A stretch of DNA of 64,000 bases from a virus (IMGVR_UViG_3300020048_000110); one strand, 5' to 3'. Counted from the first letter of the stretch, positions 44,465 to 60,550 are shown. Numbers and translations are program-made. The notes: a model not told the origin generated them from the letters alone.

Positions 44465-45577
44465 TTAAAACGGAGCATTTTCATCTCCAAAAGCATCTTG
44501 AAGAGTACCTAATGGAACAGGAGCCTCTACTTCTACAACCATAGGTTTAGCAAATAAATCAGAAGGTATTTCATATACTCTTTTAGGAGCATCTGATTCT
44601 TCAGGTATATCTCTATATTTCTCTTTATCTTTAACACCTACATCTTCTATAAAGATATCTTTGAACATAACATCTGACTCCCTGCTCTTTAACACTATAT
44701 AAAACATTTTGCCTAGAGTATCAAAAGAAGCTTTTCCATTCTTCTCTTCACAGAAATGCTTTTCTAGATAATCATAAGCTTCAGAGTTAACTCTAGAGAA
44801 TTGTTTAATACCAAGTCTATATGGATTATGACAAACATAAAGATAGTCAGAGATAAAGAACATCGAGTCTGATTGGAAAATATCGGATCTATTTGGCATA
44901 GCATTTATATCCTTATCTTTTATTCTCCCTAGAATATTTCTATTCATCTGAGTTAAAACAATCCAATAAGTATTTGGGTACAGTTTCTTTAACCGGTTTA
45001 TGATCTCAATAATATTATCAACCGTATTTTTCTTCTCTCCATTTTCATCCATAGCTAAAGCAATGTGGTCAATAGATATAAATACAGCTTTTTTATCTTT
45101 GTGGTTGTCTAAAAACTCTCTGGCCTCTCTCTCGAATACCTTTGGAGTTATAGTTTCTTCGTTTATAAAAAATCTACCATCAGATAAATTATCAGAATAG
45201 TTTTTAACTAACTCTTTTTCTTCTTCTGTAAACTCTTTTGTAAGAATCTCTTTTTTAGTCTTTTTTAAATCTCTGTTTAGATCACGTAAGATATTAGACA
45301 TGAAACGCATCTCCCAAGCATAGTCTAACCATATATATTCTTCAGCTTCTTCATTCTTCTCTACATTCATTACAAAGTTTTTAACTCTTTGTACTTCAAA
45401 TGATTTACCACCACCACTCGCTCCAGCTATTGTAGTAATATCTCCCGGAAGAAGTCCTCCAAAAATATCATCTAACCATTCTCTGCCAGTCTTAACAGGT
45501 TTGTTTTTACCTAATTGATATTTTTTTAAGTCTTTAAATGACTGTAATGCTACTTCTCCTAAAGGTCTAATCGCCAT
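44465..45577 (-). CDS. DnaB / gp4-like replicative helicase, RecA-fold C-terminal domain
   Basis: KTGREWLDDIFGGLLPGDITTIAGASGGGKS matches the DnaB pattern TG...LD...GGL..G.L..IA..P..GKT. Confidence 0.6.
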   Translation of the reverse strand: MAIRPLGEVALQSFKDLKKYQLGKNKPVKTGREWLDDIFGGLLPGDITTIAGASGGGKSFEVQRVKNFVMNVEKNEEAEEYIWLDYAWEMRFMSNILRDLNRDLKKTKKEILTKEFTEEEKELVKNYSDNLSDGRFFINEETITPKVFEREAREFLDNHKDKKAVFISIDHIALAMDENGEKKNTVDNIIEIINRLKKLYPNTYWIVLTQMNRNILGRIKDKDINAMPNRSDIFQSDSMFFISDYLYVCHNPYRLGIKQFSRVNSEAYDYLEKHFCEEKNGKASFDTLGKMFYIVLKSRESDVMFKDIFIEDVGVKDKEKYRDIPEESDAPKRVYEIPSDLFAKPMVVEVEAPVPLGTLQDAFGDENAPF

Positions 45578-46166
45578 CTTGTTCTATTTTTGCAAATTTG
45601 TTATCAAAATCTTCTTGGTATTTAATATAGTACTGATATAATCTAGACTGCTCTAAATCAAATCTTACTGAAAAGCTATTACTAGGTTTAAAAAATAAAT
45701 ACTCTAACCTTTTAGACCACTCAAATTGACTACTGTCATTCATGAATGTCTTACAGAGAAGAGCTAATTTATTTCTATCAATACCTGAGTTAGCCCTAAA
45801 CAAAGAAACATAAAGTTTAGTCTTCTTCCTGTTACCAAGTTCTTTACCCTCTTTTTTATAAGTAGCTTCTAGCCAATTATAAAGCTTTAAATCATCTTCG
45901 TTAATCTCAGGAACTTGTAGGTCTTCTAATAAATCATGCCCTTTAGAACTTAGTCTAATTCTATTCTGTATAGAATCTCTTTTGTTTTTAGCTTTTATTA
46001 ATACCACAAGTCCCCGATCTTGATAACTATCTAAAGTACCTAAACTAATACTCTCAGTTATAATCTCCTCTAGACTTTCATTCTTATTCTGGGAAATAAG
46101 TTGTAAGTTAACTACATCTGTCAATGTTAACTCTTTCTTTTTTACAAGATCAAAATTTATATACAT
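45567..46166 (-). CDS. Hypothetical protein, 199 aa
   Basis: ORF. Confidence 0.45.
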   Translation of the reverse strand: MYINFDLVKKKELTLTDVVNLQLISQNKNESLEEIITESISLGTLDSYQDRGLVVLIKAKNKRDSIQNRIRLSSKGHDLLEDLQVPEINEDDLKLYNWLEATYKKEGKELGNRKKTKLYVSLFRANSGIDRNKLALLCKTFMNDSSQFEWSKRLEYLFFKPSNSFSVRFDLEQSRLYQYYIKYQEDFDNKFAKIEQDGD

Positions 46167-46316
46167 ACAATTAAATATTTTTTATAATCCAATAAATACC
46201 ATATATTTCAATTGCTATAAGCAACAAATATGGAATTATCATTAATACTGTTTTTGCTAATCTTTTTGCTCGGTAAAGGTACAACTTATTTTTCACTTAA
46301 TATAATTAAATTTTAT

Positions 46317-47257: not shown

Positions 47258-47431
47258 TTAAGAATTACTTTTTAGTTCCACAAGCTTTTCTTCTAAAACT
47301 TTTATTTCTTTTTCTAGAGCAAAGATTCTCTGGTTATCAAAATGAGATTTACCCATTTTTGGCTGGTTTAAAAAAGACAGTTCTGATTTCAAATGATTTA
47401 ATCTATCTCTTACTGTTTTGATGCTATCCAT
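47258..47431 (-). CDS. Small coiled-coil-like ORF of 57 aa, not in the ORF track
   Basis: MDSIKTVRDRLNHLKSELSF... fills an otherwise empty 170-nt gap. Its start overlaps the 3' end of the upstream gene by 22 nt. Confidence 0.3.
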   Translation of the reverse strand: MDSIKTVRDRLNHLKSELSFLNQPKMGKSHFDNQRIFALEKEIKVLEEKLVELKSNS

Positions 47432-47925
47432 TCTTCAAATTTATGTTTAAATTTAGTTTCTTCTTTTACCAATGGTAATAACAATCTCATTCTACCTTTA
47501 GCAGAAGCCCAAGCATTTGGGAACTCATCCTCTAACTTCTCGAATTCATGACTGTATAACAACTGATCAAACCTTGTATGCTCATCTAAAGTCAAGTAAA
47601 CAAAGTTTGTTAAATTACTCTGTACACTTGGGTGCCGGGCCTTATCAAAAAGATGACAACAGTTAGCTCTAGTAGGGATAACAATAGGAAAACCACTTTC
47701 TTGTGAACTGCTACAATTAGCTATGTGGTACTCAAAGTAAGTATCTCGTATCTCAGATTGCGATTTACGATATAGTTTGTTCTTTTCAGTTTGTTTCTTA
47801 ATAGTAGAACCCCTTTTAAGGGGCTTACTGTCTTCTATTGTCGCACAGTTTTTACAACGTTTTTTTGAGAACCAAGGTTGGTCATCTCTTCCACAAGATG
47901 TACATTTTTTACATTTTTGTAACAT
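47410..47925 (-). CDS. Cys-rich zinc-ribbon-like protein, 171 aa
   Basis: N-terminal CKKCTSCG...CKNC, then ANCCHLFDKARH. Confidence 0.4.
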   Translation of the reverse strand: MLQKCKKCTSCGRDDQPWFSKKRCKNCATIEDSKPLKRGSTIKKQTEKNKLYRKSQSEIRDTYFEYHIANCSSSQESGFPIVIPTRANCCHLFDKARHPSVQSNLTNFVYLTLDEHTRFDQLLYSHEFEKLEDEFPNAWASAKGRMRLLLPLVKEETKFKHKFEEWIASKQ

Positions 47926-48997
47926 TATCTACTATGTATCTGTAAGGAATAAATCCTTTAAAGTTATTACACCAACCTAAAGCTTTTTCTTCACAAGCTC
48001 CACTTAAAGGAGTATAGCCAGTCATTGCAGCAAACTCAGTCTGGAATTCTCTATCATTTATAAGATTAATTTTTCCTTTAATATTGCCCCTATATTCATC
48101 TTCACTCATAGCTCTAGCACAATGCTCTAAAGGAGAGCTATGAGGAGGGTCCCAAGCAAGAAGTCTATCATGTAAGCCTATTAAAGCATGAGCATTAAGC
48201 TCTTTTTCTTCTCCTACTACAGTATAAGAAGTTCTAGCTGCCATAGCTACAGACATAAAAACTTTATCTTCTGTAGTACACTTTTCTTTATAATCTAACC
48301 CATCATCAGTATATGCTACTTTTAAAGTAGGTAATTTATTTTCAAAAGGAATATGCCACTCTTCAGCTTTTAATACTTTAGGAGTACTTTCATTATAAGC
48401 ATCATAAATCTTTTCAGCTAAGTCCATAATGTGAATTTCAGCTTGACCTTTATTAATATTTCTTAATTCTTCTATGTTCCAGTCTCTTCCTGTAGCTTTA
48501 GATAAATCTATTGCAGATTTAAAAATACCATTACCCATAACATACTGAGGGCATCTTAAATTAAAGAAATTATCCCAACCTGATTTAGGTCCTGTAATTA
48601 ACATAGTAGTCCACATAAAAGGTTCTAACAATCTGTTAGCTAATTGCTTAGTTACTCCTGTTTCAGTTAAAAATTTAGCAGAAGATATAGCTTGTTCTCT
48701 TGCTCTTAACCAATCTTGTTTAAGACTTTCTACATTTTCACCCTCAAAATACTCAGTACCTTGCATACCTGAGTGTGCTTTTTGCCATGCAATAGGAATA
48801 AAAGTATCATTCTGGACAGATTCTACCATTTTAGCAAATGGAATAGCTCTTGAGCTAGATGTGTTCTTAGAAAGCATCCTGTGAGTATTTACCTCAGCTA
48901 AGATAATTCTAGGAAATGTAGCAAGGACTGAGATTAACTCATCTCCTTGTGTGTTTACAGAGTGTGCCACTATTTTGGCATTAATTGTTGTTTTCAT
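47909..48997 (-). CDS. thyX: Flavin-dependent thymidylate synthase
   Basis: NTHRMLSKNTSSSRA matches the ThyX signature RHRxxSxxxxSxR(Y). Confidence 0.65.
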   Translation of the reverse strand: MKTTINAKIVAHSVNTQGDELISVLATFPRIILAEVNTHRMLSKNTSSSRAIPFAKMVESVQNDTFIPIAWQKAHSGMQGTEYFEGENVESLKQDWLRAREQAISSAKFLTETGVTKQLANRLLEPFMWTTMLITGPKSGWDNFFNLRCPQYVMGNGIFKSAIDLSKATGRDWNIEELRNINKGQAEIHIMDLAEKIYDAYNESTPKVLKAEEWHIPFENKLPTLKVAYTDDGLDYKEKCTTEDKVFMSVAMAARTSYTVVGEEKELNAHALIGLHDRLLAWDPPHSSPLEHCARAMSEDEYRGNIKGKINLINDREFQTEFAAMTGYTPLSGACEEKALGWCNNFKGFIPYRYIVDNVTKM

Positions 48998-49164
48998 TTT
49001 TTAAACGGGTTTTTCTTTCCTAAGTACTTACTTTTTACTCCTTTATTTTTCTCAAACCTCTCTTTGGCTCTTAAAGCATTTCTCTCTGTTTTACCATCTC
49101 CAAATTCAACTTTGTCTTTTTGGGATTGTGTATTATCCATATCGTGTCTTAAATCTACTCTCAT
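48994..49164 (-). CDS. Small basic ORF of 56 aa, not in the ORF track. Its stop overlaps the thyX start as ATGA
   Basis: MRVDLRHDMDNTQSQKDKVEFGDGKTERNALRAKERFEKNKGVKSKYLGKKNPFKK fills the gap. TGA at 48996-48994 overlaps the ATG at 48997-48995. Confidence 0.35.
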   Translation of the reverse strand: MRVDLRHDMDNTQSQKDKVEFGDGKTERNALRAKERFEKNKGVKSKYLGKKNPFKK

Positions 49165-49169
49165 ACTAT

Positions 49170-49352
49170 TTACTCTTTTTTATCATCTTCAATATACGCA
49201 AAAACAATTGCACAAACTAAAGCCCATAACCAAGAAAGTAAATTCCAGTATAGAGGAATTCTTTTATTTGTGTATTTTTGGTGGTTACCGTACTCTGATA
49301 AAAGTAGGGCCACGGTTACTCCAGAAAGGTAAATTAAAATTGTAGTTAACAT
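49170..49352 (-). CDS. Small membrane protein. The ORF track gives 49170-49424; the internal Met start avoids a 70-nt overlap
   Basis: MLTTILIYLSGVTVALLL... has one or two TM segments. Confidence 0.4.
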   Translation of the reverse strand: MLTTILIYLSGVTVALLLSEYGNHQKYTNKRIPLYWNLLSWLWALVCAIVFAYIEDDKKE

Positions 49353-49353
49353 A

Positions 49354-49536
49354 TTACTCTGATTTAGGTGTTCTCTTTTTATAAGTTCTCTTTTTCTTCT
49401 TTGCAGGAACCTCTTCTGCATCAATCACTTCAATAGATTCTACAGTATCATCAATACGATAAGATCTAACTATAGCAACGATTAAAAATAAAAATAGTGC
49501 TATACTCAGTATAACTTCAAAAATTGTTTGTATCAT
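49354..49536 (-). CDS. Small single-pass membrane protein with a Lys-rich tail, 60 aa
   Basis: IFEVILSIALFLFLIVAIV is a TM segment. The C-terminal KKKKRTYKKRTPK is basic. Confidence 0.45.
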   Translation of the reverse strand: MIQTIFEVILSIALFLFLIVAIVRSYRIDDTVESIEVIDAEEVPAKKKKRTYKKRTPKSE

Positions 49537-49555
49537 AGTATTTAATTTATTTGTT

Positions 49556-49669
49556 TAAAAGCCAGTAGTTTGAAAAAGGATTCTGGCAACCTCTCAATAT
49601 TAGTAAAAATAGAATTGTTATTATGACAGCAGTGATAATACTATCTGTTATTTTTTGACGATCTTTCAT
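49556..49669 (-). CDS. Tiny TM peptide of 37 aa, not in the ORF track
   Basis: MKDRQKITDSIITAVIITILFLLILRGCQNPFSNYWLL. Its ATG lies 2 nt after the upstream stop. Confidence 0.3.
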
Positions 49670-49671
49670 GA

Positions 49672-50037
49672 TTAAACTCTAAACTCTACATAATCATCCT
49701 GTATGTATATTCTAAACTTATTTACATAAAGACGAAGTATTACAATCTTACCAGTGTTTTCTTTAATACACTCTACTATCTGGTAACTATCTCCATTTTC
49801 ATCTGTACCTTTTTCGGAGTTAGAAATTTGAAAATAACGTACAGTAGCTTCGTTAACATTTACTATTATCTCCCCCCTACCACCGGGATGAAATATAACA
49901 ACAGTTTTAGACTCTTCAAAATCAGTTTTTACACCTTCTATCTCTGTAACAAATCCTTTATAGACTTGTACAGAAGTGTCGTTCTGACAAAAAACTTGAC
50001 TGCTAACTAATAGCAGTACTAAAATTAATTTCTTCAT
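49672..50037 (-). CDS. Secreted protein with an N-terminal signal peptide, 121 aa
   Basis: MKKLILVLLLVSSQVFCQ signal-like N-terminus. Confidence 0.45.
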   Translation of the reverse strand: MKKLILVLLLVSSQVFCQNDTSVQVYKGFVTEIEGVKTDFEESKTVVIFHPGGRGEIIVNVNEATVRYFQISNSEKGTDENGDSYQIVECIKENTGKIVILRLYVNKFRIYIQDDYVEFRV

Positions 50038-50098
50038 ATCTTATATATTTTTTTCAAAGGTAATACAATAATTTGAATAATCCTAGTACTTACTAAAA

Positions 50099-50671
50099 TT
50101 ATTTTATTGTTACGTTAATTTTATTCTTAATCCTATCATCTACAGAGCTATCTACTGTTGCACTAGACCTAGTAGGATTTAATTTCCAAAACTCATGCCT
50201 AATAACTTGTATAAGATTAAATGCTTCTCTACAAGATTCATCAACTTTATCATTATAGATACCCCAACTACCATTTGTACCAACAGAACGATCTTGTATT
50301 AAATGATTTCTAGCATCTGTAAACATTACATCTGCTACATCTCTAATATGATGGTATTTACTATAATCAGTTGATAGTTCAACATCTTTTAGTTTTTTCC
50401 ATTCTGTTTTATCACACCATCCACCTTTCTTTTTATCAATAGAACCATTAATTAATGCTTTACCATCTTTAATTTCAAGTATATTACCTTGTGGTGTTCT
50501 ATCACCCACTTCTGGTGTTTTGTCTGGGGCACACACTTTATACAAATGATTTTCAAATGTAGGATGTTCTTTAATTACAGTAAATTGTCCTATACCTACT
50601 CTACTATAAAAGTCTAAAGCTCTTTGGATTAATTGTAATTGTTCTTTGTTACATTCTATTGTACAGTCCAT
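50099..50671 (-). CDS. Hypothetical protein, 190 aa
   Basis: ORF. Confidence 0.45.
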   Translation of the reverse strand: MDCTIECNKEQLQLIQRALDFYSRVGIGQFTVIKEHPTFENHLYKVCAPDKTPEVGDRTPQGNILEIKDGKALINGSIDKKKGGWCDKTEWKKLKDVELSTDYSKYHHIRDVADVMFTDARNHLIQDRSVGTNGSWGIYNDKVDESCREAFNLIQVIRHEFWKLNPTRSSATVDSSVDDRIKNKINVTIK

Positions 50672-50964
50672 TATTTTTCTACATTAATTTTTAGTTCTAT
50701 ATCTGAGTTCTTTGCATGGAATTTCATATAGTTTATAATATCTACTGCTTGGCTGTACTGTTCTGCCTCATTATCCATTAGTAGTACTACTTCTCTTCTA
50801 ATCTTTCCATTTTTTTGTTGTAGTTTGATAGCTTCAATATGTCCAATCTCTTTTCCTTTGAAGTACAATACGTTCTCTTTAAATTTGTAATCTGCATTAC
50901 TAATTCCACTTGTTGATCCACATGATGCGAATATCAACACTAACATTATAAATAATTTTTTCAT
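50671..50964 (-). CDS. Putative lipoprotein, 97 aa
   Basis: MKKLFIMLVLIFASCGS is a signal peptide with a Cys lipobox. Confidence 0.45.
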   Translation of the reverse strand: MKKLFIMLVLIFASCGSTSGISNADYKFKENVLYFKGKEIGHIEAIKLQQKNGKIRREVVLLMDNEAEQYSQAVDIINYMKFHAKNSDIELKINVEK

Positions 50965-51215
50965 AGCCCTTTTTCTTTTTTATATATTTCTAATAGTTCT
51001 TCTCTTGTATATGCATCATCGTGAATTTCATTATCTCTAATAAAAAATAAAGATTCTGAACCCATAACTAAATAACAGTTTTTGTCTTTCCACTTTGTAA
51101 ATCCAATAGCAAAATTATCTGCAACATATGCTAAATTAGTTCCAATGTCATCAATCACCTCATCCATAATTGATAAATCCATTATCTCAACTTGTAACTT
51201 ATCTTTTAGTGTCAT
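50961..51215 (-). CDS. Small hypothetical protein, paralog of 51776-51994
   Basis: MTLKDKL... ...EELLEIYKKEKGL, compared with MTLKEKL... ...DELLNIIKKEKGL in the paralog. Confidence 0.5.
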   Translation of the reverse strand: MTLKDKLQVEIMDLSIMDEVIDDIGTNLAYVADNFAIGFTKWKDKNCYLVMGSESLFFIRDNEIHDDAYTREELLEIYKKEKGL

Positions 51216-51427
51216 AATTTTTCTATTTCTTGTTTAACTTCTAAATAGAAATCTTGTATCTCAAAATTATCAATACTTTCTAATATCTCATTAACGGCTA
51301 TCAATGCACATTGCTTAGCTTCTTCATACCTTCTTGTAGTACTATTTAGTCCTTCTGTACTTCCATTATTAGGAAGTGAATAGTAGAATGTATTTACTAA
51401 GTCTTTTGCTTTTTGTTTAGGTGTCAT
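51212..51427 (-). CDS. Small hypothetical protein, 71 aa
   Basis: ORF with the conserved AAAAAAGAAAAAAGATTATG upstream motif. Confidence 0.45.
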   Translation of the reverse strand: MTPKQKAKDLVNTFYYSLPNNGSTEGLNSTTRRYEEAKQCALIAVNEILESIDNFEIQDFYLEVKQEIEKL

Positions 51428-51531
51428 AATCTTTTTTCTTTTTTATAAAACAATTTTGCAATAGTAAATCCAATAAAACCACTAAGCAAAGATAATATTA
51501 TTAAGTTTATAATTGTATTATATTCATTCAT
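51424..51531 (-). CDS. Tiny TM peptide of 35 aa, not in the ORF track, coupled by ATGA
   Basis: MNEYNTIINLIILSLLSGFIGFTIAKLFYKKEKRL has the same upstream motif as its neighbours. TGA at 51426-51424 overlaps the ATG at 51427-51425. Confidence 0.4.
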   Translation of the reverse strand: MNEYNTIINLIILSLLSGFIGFTIAKLFYKKEKRL

Positions 51532-51548
51532 AATCTTTTTTCTTTTAA

Positions 51549-51779
51549 TTAAAATACTTCAACGATAATTCCTTCTTTTAAGCAGTCATCAATATTTCTT
51601 GAACATCCATTGTCATCTACAAAAAAAGGGGCAGAGCATTTAGCTTGTTTATCCCAGTATTTTGTATCTTGTTGTGTATATATTTTACCTTCAATTAATT
51701 GGTCAGCTTCAAAAGTTATACCAGATGTTCCGAAATCATCTCTTCCTTTTTCGCTCTTTAATGCTTTGAATTTTCTCAT
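51549..51779 (-). CDS. Small hypothetical protein, 76 aa
   Basis: ORF. Confidence 0.45.
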   Translation of the reverse strand: MRKFKALKSEKGRDDFGTSGITFEADQLIEGKIYTQQDTKYWDKQAKCSAPFFVDDNGCSRNIDDCLKEGIIVEVF

Positions 51780-51994
51780 AATCCTTTTTCTTTTTTAATA
51801 ATATTTAATAACTCGTCTAAACTATAATCTCCTTGACTTTGTTTATATTGTAAAGCTTTATTACTTATATAAGTTCTCAAAACTTCTTTAGCGAAATCAT
51901 CTGCTATTTTTTCTACTTCAGGTATTATTCTGTCTTCTTTGTGTTCCCAAAGGTTATCAAATATTACATTGAATAATTTTTCTTTTAATGTCAT
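51776..51994 (-). CDS. Small hypothetical protein, paralog of 50961-51215
   Basis: Shares the N- and C-terminal peptides. It is preceded by an SD-like AAGGAGGAG rather than the A-rich motif. Confidence 0.5.
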   Translation of the reverse strand: MTLKEKLFNVIFDNLWEHKEDRIIPEVEKIADDFAKEVLRTYISNKALQYKQSQGDYSLDELLNIIKKEKGL

Positions 51995-52093
51995 AAGTCT
52001 CCTCCTTTTCTAATTAAATAATTCCATAACCAAATTGCTTTTGGCCTTACTACTTCGTAACCTAACCATAGTAATACTATCTTTAACATAGCT

Positions 52094-52315
52094 CTATTTT
52101 AATATTGTTACTTTATCTTCAGTTTCTATCCAAACATGAGCACCACAACTTAGTGGTTTATCAGGAGAATAGCATACTTTGCTTATACCTAATATTTCAA
52201 CTTCATGTGCGTAGGTATTACTTTTATAAGTCTTAACAGTTAATACTGGATTATTAGTTCCATTCTTTCTGTTAGCTTTTATTACATGCTGATTTACGTG
52301 TATGATTGTTTTCAT
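52094..52315 (-). CDS. Small hypothetical protein, 73 aa
   Basis: ORF. Confidence 0.4.
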   Translation of the reverse strand: MKTIIHVNQHVIKANRKNGTNNPVLTVKTYKSNTYAHEVEILGISKVCYSPDKPLSCGAHVWIETEDKVTILK

Positions 52316-52714
52316 TTACTCTATTATTATTTTATATCCTGTTTTTATCCATTCAAAATCTTTAACTTTAGTACCTTTAAAACCAAAACTACTTAAATAC
52401 ATACCCCTTGAAATATAAGGTCCTCCAGAAGGATCTACCATTTCAATTTCATCTTTTAAAGAATCTACCATCTTAACATACTTATCACTTAAAATATATT
52501 CTCTTTTTATATCATCATACTGATGCACTGCTTTTTTAAACTCTTCTAAAGAAAGTTTAGGTTTTTTATCAGCACAATACTCAGCATAAGCTCTTGTGTA
52601 GTCATTTGGCATACCAATTCTACAATACTCAAAATTTCCTTCCCACAAAATATTTCCATCTTCGTCTGGAGTAAATGTGTATTTATCTCCGTACCTATTT
52701 ATATACTTTTCCAT
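52316..52714 (-). CDS. Hypothetical protein, 132 aa
   Basis: ORF. Confidence 0.45.
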   Translation of the reverse strand: MEKYINRYGDKYTFTPDEDGNILWEGNFEYCRIGMPNDYTRAYAEYCADKKPKLSLEEFKKAVHQYDDIKREYILSDKYVKMVDSLKDEIEMVDPSGGPYISRGMYLSSFGFKGTKVKDFEWIKTGYKIIIE

Positions 52715-52717
52715 ATT

Positions 52718-52909
52718 TTATCCTACTTTAATTCCAGCCTTTTTAAGGATTTGCATTATTTTTTGATACTCTTCTTCTTTTTCTCTAATATATTCATAAT
52801 CACTTAACATAGCTTTAGCCATATTCATAAATTCATCAGATACTTTTATTCTTGCTACACTGTAATCTTCAGCCATAATTAAAGATTTCATTATTTCTCC
52901 TACTGTCAT
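52718..52909 (-). CDS. Small hypothetical protein. A start at the internal MTVGEIMK avoids the 80-nt overlap implied by the ORF track
   Basis: The downstream Met abuts the stop of the next gene. Confidence 0.35.
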   Translation of the reverse strand: MTVGEIMKSLIMAEDYSVARIKVSDEFMNMAKAMLSDYEYIREKEEEYQKIMQILKKAGIKVG

Positions 52910-52913
52910 ATTT

Positions 52914-53225
52914 TTATTTTTCAATTGTGTTAAACCATTTATCAAAAATTTCTTCAGCCTCATCTGTATTGTCAGTAACACACCTACACACATTATGACC
53001 TTCCATATATGCTTCTTTTATAATTTCTATTATATTAAAAGGATTTTCTAAATATAAAGAATCGTATTTATCTCTACAGCCCCATTTACCTTCTACCGTA
53101 TAAGAAGCCCAACCATCTACTAATATTGGATAATTTATAGTATCACTTATACTTGTCACTTTGGCATATCCTGTCTGTATAGTCCATACAGTATCACCAA
53201 CTTTTAAATCTTTAAATTTACTCAT
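52914..53225 (-). CDS. Hypothetical protein, 103 aa
   Basis: ORF. Confidence 0.45.
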   Translation of the reverse strand: MSKFKDLKVGDTVWTIQTGYAKVTSISDTINYPILVDGWASYTVEGKWGCRDKYDSLYLENPFNIIEIIKEAYMEGHNVCRCVTDNTDEAEEIFDKWFNTIEK

Positions 53226-53385
53226 AATTTTTATTTTTCATTAATAGCGTTACCCAGAATATCATTAAAAGTAACATACCGGTCATATATACTTTATTTT
53301 CTAGTGTAAAAGCTGGGGCACAATTAGGATGGCCTGGGTGCTCTATGCACCAACAATCACTTTTCGGAGGACAAGGTGGTTTCAT
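53218..53385 (-). CDS. Small Cys-rich membrane-anchored ORF of 55 aa, not in the ORF track, coupled by ATGA to the phosphoesterase gene
   Basis: MKPPCPPKSDCWCIEHPGHPNCAPAFTLENKVYMTGMLLLMIFWVTLLMKNKNYE. ATG at 53385-53383 overlaps the TGA at 53384-53382. Its own stop overlaps codons 2-3 of the next gene. Confidence 0.4.
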   Translation of the reverse strand: MKPPCPPKSDCWCIEHPGHPNCAPAFTLENKVYMTGMLLLMIFWVTLLMKNKNYE

Positions 53386-53855
53386 ATTAACTCTGTTATT
53401 AATTTTGGTGTATAATCTACTACTTCACAAGATACATTTACATACCTTCCATCATCAAGACTGTTCTCATGAACATGTCCGTGTATATTGTAAGAGTATC
53501 TAAACTCTAATTGTGATGGATGTACTGGGCAGTGTGTTAAAATGTAGTTGTCTTTAAAATCAATCATTCCTGCTACACTGTTTACGTATTTAAGCAGTTC
53601 TGGAATATCTTGTCTTCTATCGTGATTTCCTAAGATCACATTAATAACACCGTTCAATCTACTTAGAATAGGATAGAAGTTCTTTGTTTCCATAGCTACA
53701 TCTCCTAGTAGGTAAGTAACATCCTTTTTATTTACAACAGAATTCCATTTTGTTACAATGTATTCAGTCATTTCACCTGCTGAGGAAAAACCTCTTTTTA
53801 TTGCCATGTTTTTATGGCCAAAGTGTGTATCACTTATAAATCTTACATTTCCCAT
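53382..53855 (-). CDS. Calcineurin-like metallophosphoesterase / Ser-Thr phosphatase-like, 157 aa
   Basis: Complete motif set: SDTHFGH, LGDV, LGNHDRR, THCP, HGHVHE. Confidence 0.8.
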   Translation of the reverse strand: MGNVRFISDTHFGHKNMAIKRGFSSAGEMTEYIVTKWNSVVNKKDVTYLLGDVAMETKNFYPILSRLNGVINVILGNHDRRQDIPELLKYVNSVAGMIDFKDNYILTHCPVHPSQLEFRYSYNIHGHVHENSLDDGRYVNVSCEVVDYTPKLITELI

Positions 53856-53858
53856 AAT

Positions 53859-54062
53859 TTATTTCTTTTTAAATGTTTTGTTGTAGTATTGTTCCTCGTC
53901 TGGACTTTTGCCATTTCTTTCATCAAAAAAACCTTGTTCATAAGCATCAATAATCTGCTGTTTTTCCATTTCTTTGGCTTTATCGAGTAATTTATTTGCA
54001 AACTTTTGGTCTTTATTTGGATTATTAATCATTAAGAATAACCATTCTACTGCTGTCTTCAT
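53859..54062 (-). CDS. Small hypothetical protein, 67 aa
   Basis: ORF. Confidence 0.4.
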   Translation of the reverse strand: MKTAVEWLFLMINNPNKDQKFANKLLDKAKEMEKQQIIDAYEQGFFDERNGKSPDEEQYYNKTFKKK

Positions 54063-54067
54063 AACTA

Positions 54068-54598
54068 CTATAATTTATTTAATTGTATTACTTTTTTTAA
54101 TAATGTACTATATTGTGGGCCTGTAGCATAAGTTTGATCTAAATAAGAAAAGTACTGTTCTCTAGAAAGTTTAGATAGGTACTGTGCTTCATATAAGGCT
54201 CTGTCAGCCACACAATCCTTCCAGCTATCATAATAGGCATGATTTAAATTTGAGCCCTGTGCAGTGGTTATTCTGACCATTGCTTGTTTCATACCAAACA
54301 TATTGTGGTTTTGCTTAAAAACAGGAGATTTAAAATAACCGCTCTCTACAAAAGCCTGAGCCATTACAATATCTGGATATTTAAAAGAGTACTTTTGTAC
54401 CTCTACTAATAGTTTATCTCTAGAGAACTCTTCGTTTGTTTTTAGAGTAACCTCCGCTTCTGCTCTTACTACTATAACCTCTTTAAATACAAAAGAGCTA
54501 AGTGTAATTACCAATACTAATAGAAATGACATCATCCCGATGTATTTCCAAATGTTAACTTTTTCATAAGCTAACAAATCTTTGTTAAATCTATACAT
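54068..54598 (-). CDS. Peptidoglycan hydrolase (glucosaminidase / FlgJ-like domain) with an N-terminal TM anchor. Candidate signal-anchor-release endolysin
   Basis: MAQAFVESGYFKSPVFKQNHNMFGMK matches the glucosaminidase family AQAALESGWG.S...NNLFGIK. It is preceded by the hydrophobic KYIGMMSFLLVLVITLSSFVF. Confidence 0.7.
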   Translation of the reverse strand: MYRFNKDLLAYEKVNIWKYIGMMSFLLVLVITLSSFVFKEVIVVRAEAEVTLKTNEEFSRDKLLVEVQKYSFKYPDIVMAQAFVESGYFKSPVFKQNHNMFGMKQAMVRITTAQGSNLNHAYYDSWKDCVADRALYEAQYLSKLSREQYFSYLDQTYATGPQYSTLLKKVIQLNKL

Positions 54599-54602
54599 AA
54601 TT

Positions 54603-54687
54603 ATTTATTATCTTTTTTTACATAACCTACTAAAATAAACTTTCCATAACACCATTTATAATATGGTACTGTCTCTTCTTTTTTCAT
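54603..54687 (-). CDS. Tiny ORF of 28 aa, not in the ORF track, coupled by ATGA
   Basis: MKKEETVPYYKWCYGKFILVGYVKKDNK. ATG at 54687-54685 overlaps the upstream TGA. Confidence 0.2.
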
Positions 54688-54998
54688 CTTATTAATTTTT
54701 CTACGTTTTCTAATTGATCCATTAACCTATGACGCTCATCTGTTAAACTTTCTACATCTCTGTGTAATTCATTACCCCAATCCCTAAGTTCCTTATTAGC
54801 ATCTCTGATATCTTCTATTAAAGAGAATACTATTTCAAAATCGTACTCATTATCATCGTTTAAAAAGTCTCTTTTAAATCCTTCTAAGTACATTAATAAC
54901 TCGTTAATACTCGGACAAGTATTTTTTACTGGTGCTTTATCAATCATAATTTCTAATTTTATTTCAGCAAAGATATAATTAAAATACAATATACGCAA
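54684..54998 (-). CDS. Hypothetical protein, 104 aa
   Basis: ORF. Confidence 0.45.
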   Translation of the reverse strand: MRILYFNYIFAEIKLEIMIDKAPVKNTCPSINELLMYLEGFKRDFLNDDNEYDFEIVFSLIEDIRDANKELRDWGNELHRDVESLTDERHRLMDQLENVEKLIR

Positions 54999-55021
54999 GA
55001 AAAAATAAAAAAATTTTTAAA

Positions 55022-55048
55022 AATAAAAAACCCCCCATTTCTGGAGGG
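55022..55048 (-). terminator. Rho-independent terminator on the - strand after the RNR large subunit gene
   Basis: cccccc / ggaggg stem with one G-U pair, followed by a T-run on the - strand. Confidence 0.45.
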
Positions 55049-55078
55049 CTAAAAACAAAAATAATAAATGATAAAAAA

Positions 55079-56725
55079 TTAGGCTTCACATGAACTACAA
55101 TTCATAAGATCCCTACTAACTTCCTGTGCTATATTTACACTTCTTTGATAGTAAAGAGTCTTAATTCCCAAATTCCACGCTTCAAAAAATAAAGCATTCA
55201 CATCTTTTAACGATGCGTCTGGGTGAATCATTAAATTTAACGATTGTCCTTGATCTATAAAAACTTGTCTTTGGGCAGCTTGTTGTACTATCTCTAATTG
55301 GCTTATTTCACCAAAAGTTTTAAATACACTACGCTCTCTTTCATCTAAAAATTCTAGATGTTGTACAGAACCTCCTTTAGACAAAATGCTTCTCCATGCC
55401 TCTGGAGTATCTTGATCCTTATCTTTTAACAACTGTTTCAAGTAAGGGTTTACATATACAAATTTACCTTTAGCTAAATCTTTAATGAAATAGTTTGAGT
55501 GTAAAGGCTCAATACTAGGGCTAACTTGTCCAAGGATGAAAGAAGAACTAGTAGTTGGTGCAATAGCTACTCTAGTAGTAAACCTCTCTCCATAACCCTC
55601 TAACATCTTAGGCTCTCCAAACATAGTAGCTAATTCTTTACTAGCATTTAACGTTTTTTGATTGATAGTTTTAAAGATACCGTTGTTTAACATCTTAGCT
55701 TCTAATCCTTCAAAAGGAATTAACTTAGACTGTAAAAAACTATGCCATCCTAAAACTCCAATACCAATACTTCTATGCTCTTTAGCAAAAAGAAGAGCTT
55801 TTTCCATGAATAAAATCCCTTCAGCTTTCTCTATAAACTCAGAATAAACTGCATCTAAGAAATACGTTAAAGTTTCAACTGCATCCGTTTCTTTAATCTC
55901 ATCCCAATGTAATAAGTTAACTGAAGATAAACAACAAACAAAAGATTTAAACTCATCTGTATATTCTAGAATCTCACTACACATTTGACTGTGATTGATC
56001 TCCATATCTTTATCTACATAAACTTTTGGTTTGCTTTTATTAACGTTACCGGTAAAGAAGATATAAGGAAACCCTGTTTCAGCTCTCTTTTGGTGTATCT
56101 TAGCTAAGATCTTTCTTTTGTCTTTATCTCCATTCTGAACTGCTTCCATCCATTCATCTGAGATACAAACTCCTAAAGCAATATCTTGGATCTCGTTACC
56201 CTCTTCTCTACATTGTAAAAACTCTTCAATATCTGGCCCATCTACTGGGTAGTATGCTGCAAAATAACCTCTTCTAGCTTGACCTTGAGTAATAGTATTT
56301 GTAGTAGTTTGAAACAATGTCATAAAACTAACTGCTCCATTAGATACCCCATTATTTTTAATAGGTGCACCTCTACCTCTAAGTTTACCAAAATACCCTG
56401 CTGTACCACCTCCCATTTTAGTAAGTGCTCCAATCTCAGCAGTAGATCTTAAAATGTCTAGTGTATCATCTTGTATGTCTATTCCGTAACAAGAAATAGG
56501 TAATCCTCTATCTAATCCAAAGTTCATCCAAACTGGTGTAGCAAGAGAGTAAAAACCTTTCTCCATGTAACCCTCAAACTTATCTGCGAAACCTTCTATC
56601 TTTAATATTTTTTCTGCGGTTTCTGCTATCTCTCTAACTCTTTGTTCTGGTGTGACTCCTTCAATTAAGTAATCTTTACTTAAAAAAGCTCTGGAGTCTT
56701 GGTTTAACCAATAATATTTTTCCAT
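55079..56725 (-). CDS. nrdA: Ribonucleotide reductase large subunit, class I, with no ATP-cone
   Basis: Catalytic NHSQMCSEI, C-terminal Cys pair CSSCEA, and an adjacent small-subunit gene. Confidence 0.8.
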   Translation of the reverse strand: MEKYYWLNQDSRAFLSKDYLIEGVTPEQRVREIAETAEKILKIEGFADKFEGYMEKGFYSLATPVWMNFGLDRGLPISCYGIDIQDDTLDILRSTAEIGALTKMGGGTAGYFGKLRGRGAPIKNNGVSNGAVSFMTLFQTTTNTITQGQARRGYFAAYYPVDGPDIEEFLQCREEGNEIQDIALGVCISDEWMEAVQNGDKDKRKILAKIHQKRAETGFPYIFFTGNVNKSKPKVYVDKDMEINHSQMCSEILEYTDEFKSFVCCLSSVNLLHWDEIKETDAVETLTYFLDAVYSEFIEKAEGILFMEKALLFAKEHRSIGIGVLGWHSFLQSKLIPFEGLEAKMLNNGIFKTINQKTLNASKELATMFGEPKMLEGYGERFTTRVAIAPTTSSSFILGQVSPSIEPLHSNYFIKDLAKGKFVYVNPYLKQLLKDKDQDTPEAWRSILSKGGSVQHLEFLDERERSVFKTFGEISQLEIVQQAAQRQVFIDQGQSLNLMIHPDASLKDVNALFFEAWNLGIKTLYYQRSVNIAQEVSRDLMNCSSCEA

Positions 56726-58105: not shown

Positions 58106-58143
58106 ATCTACACTTTTTATACATCATTTGGCTGATGTTATTG

Positions 58144-58215
58144 TGGTCCCGGAGGATTACGATACCCCGACCTTGTTCTTATGAGGAACCTGCTCTTCCG
58201 CTGAGCTACGAGACC
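58144..58215 (-). tRNA. tRNA-Met (CAU)-like, 72 nt, with a degenerate T-arm
   Basis: The - strand reads GGTCTCG-TA-GCTCAGCGGAAGAGC-A-GGTTC-CTCATAA-GAACA-AGGTC-GGGGTATCGTAATCCTC-CGGGACC-A. The acceptor stem has 7 pairs including one G-U. The D-arm is perfect. The anticodon is CAU. The T-stem has a closing T-T in place of G53-C61. Confidence 0.45.
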
Positions 58216-58527
58216 AAAGTAGGGAGATTTCGCTCTCCCTAGGCGTGGTTAAGCTGCAATCCTTTGCACCCCACCAATGTTAAAAACGTTGCCGTTTGTG
58301 TTTAAAGTATATTCTCCTTATTACCTACTTATTGCCAGTCAAAACCAGTCACCCCCATAAAAGATTGTTTAAAGTACAACCAGTAAAACTTATAAGGTCA
58401 ACTGATAAATCAGTAGACTCCACCAGACTGTTTCTTAATTCAAGCATACAGACAAACAAACGTGGAGGTGCCGAGAGTCGAACTCGGGTGTTGGTCAACT
58501 TCAATAATATATCAACGAACTACTTCG

Positions 58528-58675
58528 TAATCAGGACAGGACTCGAACCTGTAAATAAGAGAGGTCACTTAACACTAATGGGACTCATACCATTACCCTC
58601 TGTATTGCCATACCGTGTTGCGTCTACCACGAGCAGGGACACCCCACTCCTTTCGCCACCTGATTATTTACTTGT
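58528..58675 (-). ncRNA. Oversized tRNA-like element E1, about 148 nt, homologous to E2
   Basis: 5' AATCAGG pairs with 3' CCTGATT. It has the GGTGGCG...GTGGTAGACGC D-arm with an inserted hairpin GGGGTGTCCC. At the 3' end, ACAGG-TTCGAGT-CCTGT forms a T-arm. Confidence 0.4.
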
Positions 58676-59007
58676 CTTTCCAAGTTGTCAATCCGTTTTA
58701 ATCTCTCGGTGGACCTCCCATCAACCTACATACAGATTACAGTTGTAGATATTTTATCTATAATCCTCTGTCTTTCCAGTGTCCACAACTTATGTGTTAG
58801 CCTCACACATCAATCACTAGGTTGTCAGCTTTGCAACCAAGACAGGATTTGAACCTGCAACCCTTTCTGCCTTTCGACAAAATGTTATACCTCTTTAACT
58901 TACTTGATCTCCAGGTACTCTATAAGCTACTACCCTTGGAGCTACGAATCGTATCATTGAATCTATTCTAGACTAGAGACAACAACATCTTATAGAGTTT
59001 TATTTCG

Positions 59008-59123
59008 TGATTGAGACAGGACTCGAACCTGTAATTCATACTGTTAACTATATGGTGTGTTTATACTTCACACTCTGCTTTTACCCTCTTCGGGTGTGTG
59101 TCTAGCCGTTTCACCACTCAATC
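59008..59123 (-). ncRNA. Oversized tRNA-like element E4, about 116 nt
   Basis: Acceptor GATTGAG / CTCAATC (7 bp). D-arm TG-GTG-AAACGGCTAGA-CAC. A 66-nt insert with hairpins ACCCGAAGAGGGT and GTGTGAAGTATAAACACAC. T-arm ACAGG-TTCGAGT-CCTGT. Confidence 0.4.
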
Positions 59124-59217
59124 ATTTCCCCTCGGGTGAGGGCACTCGTCAGTTTCGGTAGCATCCCCTAGACTACTCTAATTAAATCAAAGTAGATGGG
59201 GTCGAACTGTAAATACC

Positions 59218-59499
59218 TTACAAAGGTTTTTTAGAACCTATTTCATATTCACTTGGAGTATTGATCAACTTCAATAAGATGTATATATACTCTGCTTCAC
59301 TATAATCCATTCTATTTTTCTCTGCAAATTTAGTTAGAAGACTTAAACCGTTACCGTCATCCTCTATTTGAAATGCGATCCTATCTCTTATATGACTTGA
59401 CCAACTACTATCATTAGAAAAGTACAGTGTGTGTTTAGTATCATCTACTATTTCATAGTCAAAATCATATCTACCATCTACAAAAATCTGCTGTTTCAT
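59218..59499 (-). CDS. Hypothetical protein inside the tRNA-like cluster. Start set at the internal Met, because the ORF track N-terminus overlaps element E2
   Basis: MKQQIFVDGRYDFDYEIV... The longer ORF would run into the tRNA-like gene. Confidence 0.4.
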   Translation of the reverse strand: MKQQIFVDGRYDFDYEIVDDTKHTLYFSNDSSWSSHIRDRIAFQIEDDGNGLSLLTKFAEKNRMDYSEAEYIYILLKLINTPSEYEIGSKKPL

Positions 59500-59519
59500 T
59501 TTTATCTGTTTTAAATTTG

Positions 59520-59668
59520 TTGTCAGGACAGGATTCGAACCTGCAATTGTGGATTTCCAAGTAAGGACTCGTATGGGCTTTTTCCATTCCACACCCACGA
59601 TGAAACTATCCTTATCTTTTTGCGTCTACCACGTCAGGGAGAAACCCCTAACCTTCCGCCACCTGACT
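59520..59668 (-). ncRNA. Oversized tRNA-like element E2, about 149 nt
   Basis: AGTCAGGTGGCGG-AAGGTTAGGGGTTTCTCCCTGACGTGGTAGA-CGC ... GCAGG-TTCGAAT-CCTGT-CCTGACA. The D-loop carries a GGGG..CCC hairpin as in E1. It is alignable with E1 over its full length. Confidence 0.4.
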
Positions 59669-59675
59669 GTAAAAT

Positions 59676-59894
59676 TTACTTTTTAAAAGAAAACTTTTGC
59701 CCTAAAATCTCCAATCTTTGACCTAAAACTTGCAAATACTCATTCATCAATCTTGATTGTTTGTAAAGTAAATCTTTGTTTTGACGGTCTAAATCAACAA
59801 ATGCTTGAGTACGCATAAAATCGTTTAAGGCATTTGTCTTTATTGCTAATTCCTGTGCTTCAATAAGAAGTCTTTCGTAAAATGATTCTCCCAT
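59676..59894 (-). CDS. Small hypothetical protein, 72 aa, between tRNA-like genes
   Basis: ORF. Confidence 0.4.
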   Translation of the reverse strand: MGESFYERLLIEAQELAIKTNALNDFMRTQAFVDLDRQNKDLLYKQSRLMNEYLQVLGQRLEILGQKFSFKK

Positions 59895-59915
59895 TTTTAT
59901 TTAATTTAAAGTTAG

Positions 59916-60002
59916 TAGTCAGAACAGGATTTGAACCTGTATTGTTGAATTACCCAGCTTCAACTGCATAAGTATAGCGTCTACCAATTCCGCCACCTGA
60001 CT
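59916..60002 (-). tRNA. Class-II-type (Leu-like D-arm) tRNA or tRNA-like gene, 87 nt. I could not fold a canonical anticodon arm
   Basis: AGTCAGG-TG-GCGGAATTGGTAGACGC matches the bacterial tRNA-Leu D-arm, which I recall as GGUGGCGGAAUUGGUAGACGC (not checked here). It has a GTTGAA/TTCAAC hairpin with a 9-nt loop, T-arm ACAGG-TTCAAAT-CCTGT and acceptor 3' strand TCTGACT-A. Confidence 0.5.
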
Positions 60003-60009
60003 ATTTTTC

Positions 60010-60550
60010 GCTAATGTTAAAAACTGATTCAATCCTCCTAAAACACATTAACTTGGTACTTACTCTATATAGGCTCCCCAATCCTTTATATATCTTTACC
60101 TGAAACTTCTTTGGGTTGTTGATTGACCACTCCCACTTACTCAAGTAGTTTTTATTTAGCACCCTTTCTTATAGCTTACCGAGTTATCAGTTACGGAGCT
60201 TGTATAAGAGTAGGGTCACGTAGCTATACTAAATGTAAGGGTCTCTTACTAACTACTTGCTGAGAACTCATTTGTGTTAGTCTTTACTAGTTGTCGCAAC
60301 AACCTTGTAGCCACTCTATTTTCCTTTCTCAAGGGAACAACACATCTACCATTACTGATAGTATCTTTATGTAAAGTAGTCGCTCGAGGGCCTTTACTCC
60401 TATGGAGACTCAAGTGTTATTTTTAAGTTACCGACTTTTTACAAAGGATCAATGTTTAGCCTTTTATTAAAGCATTCTAGCTACATTGGGAGAACTGCCT
60501 TTCCCACGTTATTTAAGAGTATATCTTGCAGCGTATCTCACTAGGTTATG
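60010..60550. ncRNA. Candidate structured non-coding RNA: 540 nt with no ORF over 30 aa on either strand, and more GC-rich than its surroundings
   Basis: No ORF in six frames. It lies next to the tRNA-like cluster and is flanked by - strand genes. Confidence 0.25.

Follow-up and report, generated by a model that had tools for sequence, protein, structure and literature searches.

Small cassette genes hidden in phage operons by length thresholds are already well known as a kind, and a metagenomic survey by Fremin et al. in 2022 reportedly cataloged families of such phage genes. Here we analyzed very short open reading frames (micro-ORFs) on the minus strand of the viral sequence IMGVR_UViG_3300020048_000110, a stretch of 64,000 nucleotides (nt) referred to below as the window. 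The micro-ORFs, six of which were proposed between 47.2 and 55.0 kb, are very probably bona fide small protein-coding genes within one long, tightly packed minus-strand block. Catalogs of small ORFs exist (PMC11364881), and in Flavobacterium johnsoniae, whose mRNAs lack Shine–Dalgarno sequences, an A at position −3 is a positive determinant of initiation (PMC6847099).

The window has a G+C content of about 32% and consists of a plus-strand block of giant ORFs (0–37 kb) facing a minus-strand block (37–64 kb). The latter encodes ribonucleotide reductase (RNR) subunits, ThyX, dUTPase, a DnaB-type helicase, a family-A DNA polymerase and, at 54068–54598, a glucosaminidase with matches to endolysin families and a hydrophobic N-terminal segment. 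ThyX alone has an nt-level match in GenBank phages: Flavobacterium psychrophilum phages of the FpV4/FPSV group carry it with about 75% identity. On this basis the source was treated as a presumptive uncultured phage of a Flavobacterium-like Bacteroidota host. The 47.2–55.0 kb block is part of the nucleotide-metabolism, replication and accessory region of this presumed Bacteroidota phage.

Results

Conservation of the micro-ORFs

Relatives were collected by scanning IMG/VR with the micro-peptides themselves and tracing the matching protein clusters to their contigs. IMG/VR relatives anchored on ThyX, and relatives of ORF 50099–50671, were too diverged, with even the accepted neighbor genes unmatched. 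For five of the six micro-ORFs (all except m49547; Table 1), diverged relatives carry an uninterrupted copy that begins at the equivalent start codon and is of similar length. In these five, which are under purifying selection on the encoded peptide, the ratio of nonsynonymous to synonymous substitution rates (dN/dS) was 0.02–0.29, and changes were in excess at third codon positions (p = 3e-4 to 0.01). The initial annotation, made from the sequence of the window, had regarded the micro-ORFs as real genes and had named loss or interruption in close relatives as the finding that would speak against this. The five were neither lost nor interrupted, and for them the claim stands; the stretch containing m49547 is carried by no relative, and this candidate is unproven.

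A search with the concatenated peptides in a set of 5.8 billion proteins returned only the SulP-fusion oddity described below, and its negative result was discarded as unreliable because it had missed homologs later found by single-family searches. tblastn with the concatenated peptides against 50,697 GenBank phage records found none of the six. The ENA contig L049, which is 99.6% identical, has zero differences inside any micro-ORF and is therefore uninformative on selection.

Table 1. Micro-genes, junction-motif copies and terminator of the minus-strand block (aa, amino acids; TM, transmembrane).
Feature	Coordinates	Strand	Description
m47258	47258–47431	−	57-aa helical peptide, motif RDRLN..KS.L..L.QPKMGKSHFDN; 22-nt overlap with the 3' end of upstream 47410–47925
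m48994	48994–49164	−	56-aa very basic hydrophilic peptide (17 K/R, 9 D/E); stop overlaps the ThyX start as ATGA
60-aa membrane micro-gene	49170–49352	−	Called on L049; exact peptide in public collections
60-aa membrane micro-gene	49354–49536	−	Called on L049; exact peptide in public collections
m49547 (candidate)	49547–49669	−	40-aa single-pass TM peptide; starts 2 nt past the stop of 49672–50037
m51424	51424–51531	−	35-aa single-pass TM peptide; stop overlaps next ATG (ATGA); 3' end carries the KKEK(G/R)L* junction motif
m51991	51991–52089	−	32 aa; stop overlaps next ATG as ATGA at 51994
m53218	53218–53385	−	55 aa; N-terminal Cys/His knuckle (MKPPCPPK..CWC..HP.H..C), one TM helix, basic tail; ATG overlaps upstream stop (ATGA)
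m54601	54601–54687	−	28 aa; 'PYYKWCYGKFILVGY' beta-hairpin micro-protein family (PYYKWCYGKF); ATGA-coupled to 54684–54947
22-nt junction motif	50961–50982, 51424–51445, 51776–51797	−	TAAAAAAGAAAAAGG(A/G)(T/C)TATGA; C-terminal KKEKGL* plus next ATG
Strong intrinsic terminator	55029–55050	−	9-bp stem with 5 G-C pairs, then T-run; after RNR large-subunit gene

The beta-hairpin family m54601

The shortest gene of the block, m54601, is also its most strongly conserved, and it is missed by callers. Homologs were present at 20 related loci, with 15 further variants, and about 70 protein clusters (25–73 aa) matched, all of them 'hypothetical' and none a domain of a larger protein. The 15-codon core PYYKWCYGKFILVGY is essentially fixed; 3, 1 and 13 variable columns fall at codon positions 1, 2 and 3, respectively (binomial p = 3e-4), and dN/dS is mostly 0.02–0.26. 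TTG occurs in one relative where another has ATG. Identity of the peptide exceeds 80% between phages in which the flanking genes are no longer recognizably related. AlphaFold2 modeled a hairpin with strands at residues 5–12 and 15–23 (core predicted local distance difference test, pLDDT, 94), and the peptide has no TM segment. In the window and its closest relatives, m54601 lies directly before the endolysin-like gene 54068–54598, ending 2 nt short of it in the window.

Gene callers left m54601 uncalled on contigs L049 and L081; standard callers skip it because it has fewer than 30 codons. The family is common among phages and regularly escapes gene finders, and because only two contigs of metagenome-assembled genomes among 185,579 species genomes carry it, it looks restricted to phages. 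The peptide is probably a soluble beta-hairpin that acts by binding a conserved host or phage partner. On one reading, its constraint would reflect strand-addition binding to a highly conserved protein of the Bacteroidota host or to a core phage protein. That m54601 is a previously unrecognized, phage-restricted micro-protein effector is a tentative idea, which we consider rather doubtful.

The membrane-anchored knuckle m53218

In a nine-member alignment (A3) of m53218, M1, K2, P4, C5, P6, P7, K8, C11, W12, C13, H16, P17 and C22 were invariant. Homologs were found in L060, L061 and L077–L080, with dN/dS of 0.11–0.29. The AlphaFold2 model contains a short helix at residues 10–15 and a second at 28–54 (mean pLDDT 77). 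As the initial annotation had noticed, the N-terminus is rich in Cys, with four Cys and two His within the first 22 residues. Because of the basic C-terminal tail, m53218 probably displays this small knuckle on the outside.

m51424, the junction motif and cassette exchange

A standalone 31-aa homolog of m51424 occurs in L076 (87% identity), and the cluster variants P0111–P0113 also match. The identical peptide was found on at least five contigs, with differing downstream genes. Its dN/dS is 0.04–0.10, and 12 of 16 variable columns fall at codon position 3. Separately, protein P0001 of L052 (285–1112) joins codons 1–25 of m51424, in frame, with the C-terminal half of a STAS-domain transporter of the SulP family. 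The fused segment is 96% identical to m51424 in aa and 85% in nt, and nearly all of the changes are synonymous. This joint lies on a contig of 1.1x coverage, with the SulP match beginning at residue 21, and may be a chimera or a genuine fusion.

The 3' end of m51424 is one of three copies in the window of the junction motif TAAAAAAGAAAAAGGATTATGA, for which 0.03 copies were expected. The motif is also present on the gene strand in L062/63, L072, L077/78 (twice each) and L079/80. In the 50961/51776 paralogs it encodes the C-terminal KKEKGL*, and the TM peptide of m51424, which is unrelated to them, has the same ending. Part of the ATGA recurrence probably reflects this 3'-end repeat of a single paralog family, as opposed to selection acting separately at each junction.

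Homology with relatives begins and ends with single-base precision at start/stop junctions. One segment of L079 aligns with the window as far as 53385, where 53382–53855 ends, and the sequence from 53386 onward, at the start of m53218, lies elsewhere in L079; homology of m53218 itself with L079 and L077 starts exactly at the ATG. In L077, an m53218-type cassette occupies the junction at which 50961–51215 and 50671–50964 meet in the window, and this cassette is flanked on both sides by AAAAAGGATTATGA, a partial copy of the junction motif. Because homology breaks at the junctions, each micro-gene is seen to behave as an independently exchanged cassette, as read from these sequence comparisons. 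The KKEKGL* plus ATG motif could provide micro-homology for cassette shuffling.

The gene m51991, whose ATGA overlap had been overlooked in the initial annotation, has homologs in L002, L064 and L075 at 48–60% identity and five cluster variants of 32 aa. It is called on L049, and its gap-fill shuffle (described below) gave p = 0.004.

m48994 and m47258 on the ThyX side

The 90% cluster of m48994 contains 10 distinct variants, each exactly 56 aa long. In L081–L083, a homolog that is 93% identical in aa keeps the ATGA overlap with ThyX, although ThyX itself has only 58% identity there. With six changes of each kind, synonymous and nonsynonymous, dN/dS was 0.18 (Fisher p = 0.007). A scan of JGI metagenomes (48994/49547) and a separate scan of IMG/VR (48994) found no homolog of m48994. 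The peptide is probably basic, disordered and co-expressed with ThyX. The ThyX genes at this place (47909–48997 in the window; 1450–2145 in L079) differ between close relatives: the window encodes 362 aa and L081 390 aa, and L079/L080 have a canonical Thy1 of 231 aa. Each of them is preceded by an ATGA-overlapping 56-aa ORF, that of L079 being unrelated in sequence to m48994.

For m47258, 8 distinct full-length variants were identified at 13 related loci, with 63–93% aa identity, and representatives P0088, P0089, P0094 and P0096 match it. The homologs always lie downstream of a homolog of 47410–47925, overlapping it by 22–34 nt, and dN/dS is 0.11–0.29 at a synonymous divergence (dS) of about 1. 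The partner gene 47410–47925 has no match in Pfam, PHROG, NCBIfam or the PDB; its Cys-rich product probably has m47258 as a helical partner. At 13220–13383 (about 47452 in the window), L049 departs from the window inside the last codons of 47410–47925. At its end this contig has a segment of about 60 nt repeated in tandem (copies starting near 13219 and 13279), which yields a 202-aa product with loss of 47258–47431; it could be a contig-end artifact or a real breakpoint.

The candidate m49547 and its surroundings

Of the whole set, m49547 has the highest hydropathy (2.66), and its ATG has an A at −3. If it is not counted, a gap of 135 nt is left, the largest non-coding one in the block. A JGI metagenome scan with the neighbors of m48994 and m49547 found nothing, and the stretch from 49.1 to 50.0 kb is almost lineage-specific, including the accepted gene 49672–50037. 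On intrinsic evidence only, m49547 is probably, not demonstrably, a lineage-specific membrane micro-gene. Fusion of 49672–50037 with m49547 by a −1 frameshift was considered and set aside, there being no slippery site and a stop in the −1 frame 4 codons upstream of the ATG. The two adjacent 60-aa micro-genes complete the tight packing of the block, and 49354–49536 has homologs with a TM segment and basic tail in L054 and L056–L059.

Positions, junctions and existing annotation

All six micro-ORFs proposed in the initial annotation are present on the minus strand. Four had been placed correctly, while two low ends required correction, to 49547 from 49556 (40 aa) and to 54601 from 54603 (28 aa). 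ATGA overlaps were read at 48997, 51427, 53385, 54687 and 9059; the junction of giant ORFs at 22343, which had been given as ATGA, is a 1-nt TAATG overlap. At 51427, which had also been listed as an ATG overlapping an upstream stop, it is the micro-ORF stop that overlaps the next ATG; the ATG of this micro-ORF (51531) lies 17 nt past the upstream stop. The 2-nt start spacing at 49669 and the 22-nt overlap at 47410–47431 had been given correctly, and so had the three single-pass TM peptides, with Kyte–Doolittle 17-residue means of 2.14–2.66 in m49547, m51424 and m53218. The count of at least six proved too low: 51991–52089, 49354–49536 and 46171–46296 are also conserved, and 49170–49352 is also called. 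The element at 46171–46296 (minus strand) is a conserved TM peptide between the dUTPase gene and 45567–46166, and it probably begins at a start inside the GTG ORF.

The micro-ORFs had been termed unannotated, which holds relative to the ORF track of at least 60 aa and is mostly due to that length cut-off; four of the six were already in public protein collections. The exact peptides of m47258, m48994, m51424 and m53218 are found there, called on a 71.5-kb contig and mostly labeled 'hypothetical protein'. On L049, m53218, m51424 and m48994 have gene calls, as do m51991 and the two 60-aa genes. Only m54601 and m49547 among the six are uncalled, with exact peptides absent from the protein collection, and L049 and L081 have uncalled gaps of 85, 135 and 90 nt at the 54601 and 49547 positions.

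Gap filling beyond chance and start context

Each gap was shuffled with its flanks kept, and the same-strand ORFs were compared. The observed ORF was equaled in 0.1–4.7% of shuffles per gap; the p values for the six gaps were 0.027, 0.012, 0.0035, 0.047 (m49547), 0.001 (m48994) and 0.0065 (Fisher combined p = 7e-8). The antisense strand of the six gaps contains no comparable ORF. An A at −3 precedes all six micro-ORF starts, compared with 72% of long genes and 36% of other coding-strand ATGs (p = 0.002).

Weighing of alternative explanations

Several observations weigh against reading the whole set as genes. Of null ORFs of 28–57 codons, 11–31% score equally high with the 3-periodic Markov coding score, which at this length separates true from spurious ORFs only weakly and is not decisive. 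m49547 has the lowest score of the set (−0.04 bits per codon), no homolog in IMG/VR, JGI metagenomes or the fetched loci, no call on L049 and no exact peptide in the protein collection. The selection result for m48994 comes from only 12 nt differences, and its low dS (0.24) relative to its neighbors could reflect nucleotide-level constraint or recent transfer. Pfam, PHROGs and NCBIfam contain no significant match to any of the micro-peptides; comparison of the m54601 hairpin model with the PDB by Foldseek returned nothing meaningful (E > 6); and the neighbors of m54601 differ between phages, so guilt by association gives no lead. Translation of the micro-ORFs and its coupling are matters that we infer from sequence. 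Some of these points, namely the poor separation by the Markov score and the uncalled m49547 without a homolog, together with the commonness of short ORFs in a genome of 32% G+C, are what would be expected if the micro-ORFs were chance open frames in short, untranslated spacers. This is very improbable for the set and already refuted for five members, which are intact in diverged relatives with third-position-biased change and the low dN/dS given above. Moreover, gap filling exceeds the shuffle expectation on the gene strand only, A at −3 recurs in all six, and the conserved non-coding terminator at 55029–55050 in the same block does show in-frame stops in relatives.

Conservation might instead come from nucleic-acid elements such as promoters, RNA structures or recombination and junction sites, the open frames being incidental. 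The DNA of m48994 is 93% identical where its neighbors are at about 76%, with low dS; the 22-nt motif is repeated; and homology blocks break at gene junctions, all of which would fit such elements. We nevertheless give this explanation the least credence: the m54601 core has 13 of its 17 variable columns at codon position 3, with 15 residues essentially fixed across 15 sequences, third-position bias recurs in m51424, m53218 and m47258, alternative frames of m48994 give mostly nonsynonymous change, start and stop positions are conserved, and no Rfam family matched. It is also unlikely that some micro-ORFs are decaying fragments of larger genes, with m51424 deriving from the capture of a TM segment, m47258 from an N-terminal domain that was cut off and m49547 from the detached C-terminal anchor of 49672–50037. 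The SulP fusion of the first 25 m51424 codons in L052 speaks for this, as do the proteins P0091 and P0093 (113–115 aa), of which the m47258 segment forms the N-terminal part, and the 92–94 aa proteins with C-terminal TM anchors at a comparable position in relatives. Against it, standalone forms of constant length and start persist under purifying selection in several lineages, and the L052 fusion has the low coverage and late-starting Pfam SulP match noted above. Bona fide small genes thus account best for the set as we read it.

Organization of the block

Counting the micro-genes, 31 genes lie between 45.5 and 56.7 kb, about 13 of which encode 60 aa or fewer. Their 30 consecutive junctions include eight ATGA overlaps and one TAATG overlap; the other spacings range from −22 to +22 nt, plus one of 61 nt. 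The stop and start codons of the minus-strand micro-genes overlap or abut without an intervening terminator. The gene strand has a single strong terminator, at 55050–55029, which forms the upstream boundary of the 47.2–55.0 kb block; no second strong gene-strand terminator and no Rfam family were found. Because of these two negatives, a single polycistronic unit with termination-reinitiation coupling is the most economical reading of the block. At the ATGA, TAATG and 0–5 nt junctions, ribosomes would terminate and re-initiate, which would suit hosts whose ribosomes ignore Shine–Dalgarno sequences and favor A at −3.

A GTG 'ORF' at 54979–55089 was rejected as a seventh micro-ORF: it spans the terminator, and its DNA is conserved with in-frame stops in relatives. 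It served as a negative control in which the hairpin sequence is kept and the reading frame broken.

Other features of the window

An array of tRNA-like genes occupies 58143–60002 on the minus strand. ARAGORN identified tRNA-Met (58143–58215) and tRNA-His (59915–60002), and the Rfam tRNA model added 58834–58909 and an unusually long 59008–59123. A match to the permuted-tmRNA model at 58249–58520 narrowly misses the gathering score (44.8 versus 47 bits). The array also contains five copies of a T-arm-like repeat, GGACAGGAyTyGAACCTG, and the long ORFs listed within it, 58296–58748 (plus) and 59218–59598 (minus), are probably spurious. Upstream of the array, a non-coding 90-nt patch (60354–60441) holds 46 of the 50 alignment columns (substitutions and gap positions) that differ from L049 over 13 kb. 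The segments 59915–60007 and 60321–60375 are 92–100% identical in otherwise diverged relatives.

Discussion

The initial annotation had suggested that small membrane peptides of this sort often serve in anti-defense or lysis regulation. This was neither supported nor contradicted: there was no Pfam, PHROG or NCBIfam match and no consistent neighborhood, and in the same general libraries no known anti-defense family matched. The three TM peptides likely insert into the host inner membrane as accessory peptides.

They resemble holins, antiholins and spanins as single-pass TM peptides of 35–55 aa, and m49547, m51424 and m53218 each have the small size and TM helix of a holin-type protein (by Kyte–Doolittle and, in m53218, by the AlphaFold2 helix 28–54). 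m54601 and the TM genes also lie near an endolysin-like glucosaminidase with an N-terminal TM segment. The TM micro-genes are, however, separated from the endolysin-like gene 54068–54598 by 0.7–4.5 kb, and their neighbors change between relatives. The best PHROG holin matches were non-significant (E = 0.019 and 0.13), placing none in a holin, antiholin or spanin family, while m54601 has no TM segment and elsewhere stands beside unrelated genes. The PYYKWCYGKF hairpin, the CPPK..CWC..HP..C knuckle with TM helix and the QPKMGKSHFDN helical peptide correspond to no named family in Pfam, PHROGs or NCBIfam. They add three uncharacterized micro-protein families with sharp motifs: a beta-hairpin, a membrane-anchored Cys/His knuckle and a putative helical partner of a Cys-rich protein.

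The nearest GenBank genomes, the F. psychrophilum phages of the FpV4/FPSV group, share ThyX at about 75% nt identity and the general module content, whereas nothing else from 47 to 55 kb matches them at the nt level. In its ATGA and TAATG junctions and tight spacing, the block is like the overlapping stop/start coupling of phage and bacterial operons, in a host clade that is independent of Shine–Dalgarno sequences and favors A at −3 (PMC6847099). It differs in that part of the ATGA recurrence probably stems from the 3'-end motif of the KKEKGL* paralogs, and coupling here is a prediction from sequence.

The closest likeness is to the small phage genes and 'moron' cassettes. Like these, the micro-genes are short, mostly ORFans, often with a single TM helix, and packed between larger genes; they are conserved only within a phage group, exchanged as cassettes and often missed by length thresholds. 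The block is a worked example of how an ORF track of at least 60 aa, and even standard callers, under-annotate phage genomes, and of cassette exchange that is precise to the base pair where stop and start codons overlap. Present ideas on how phage genomes are organized are unchanged by it: as a class, nothing sets these micro-genes apart from other small phage genes, and the set is an expected feature of a phage genome, not a new kind of system.

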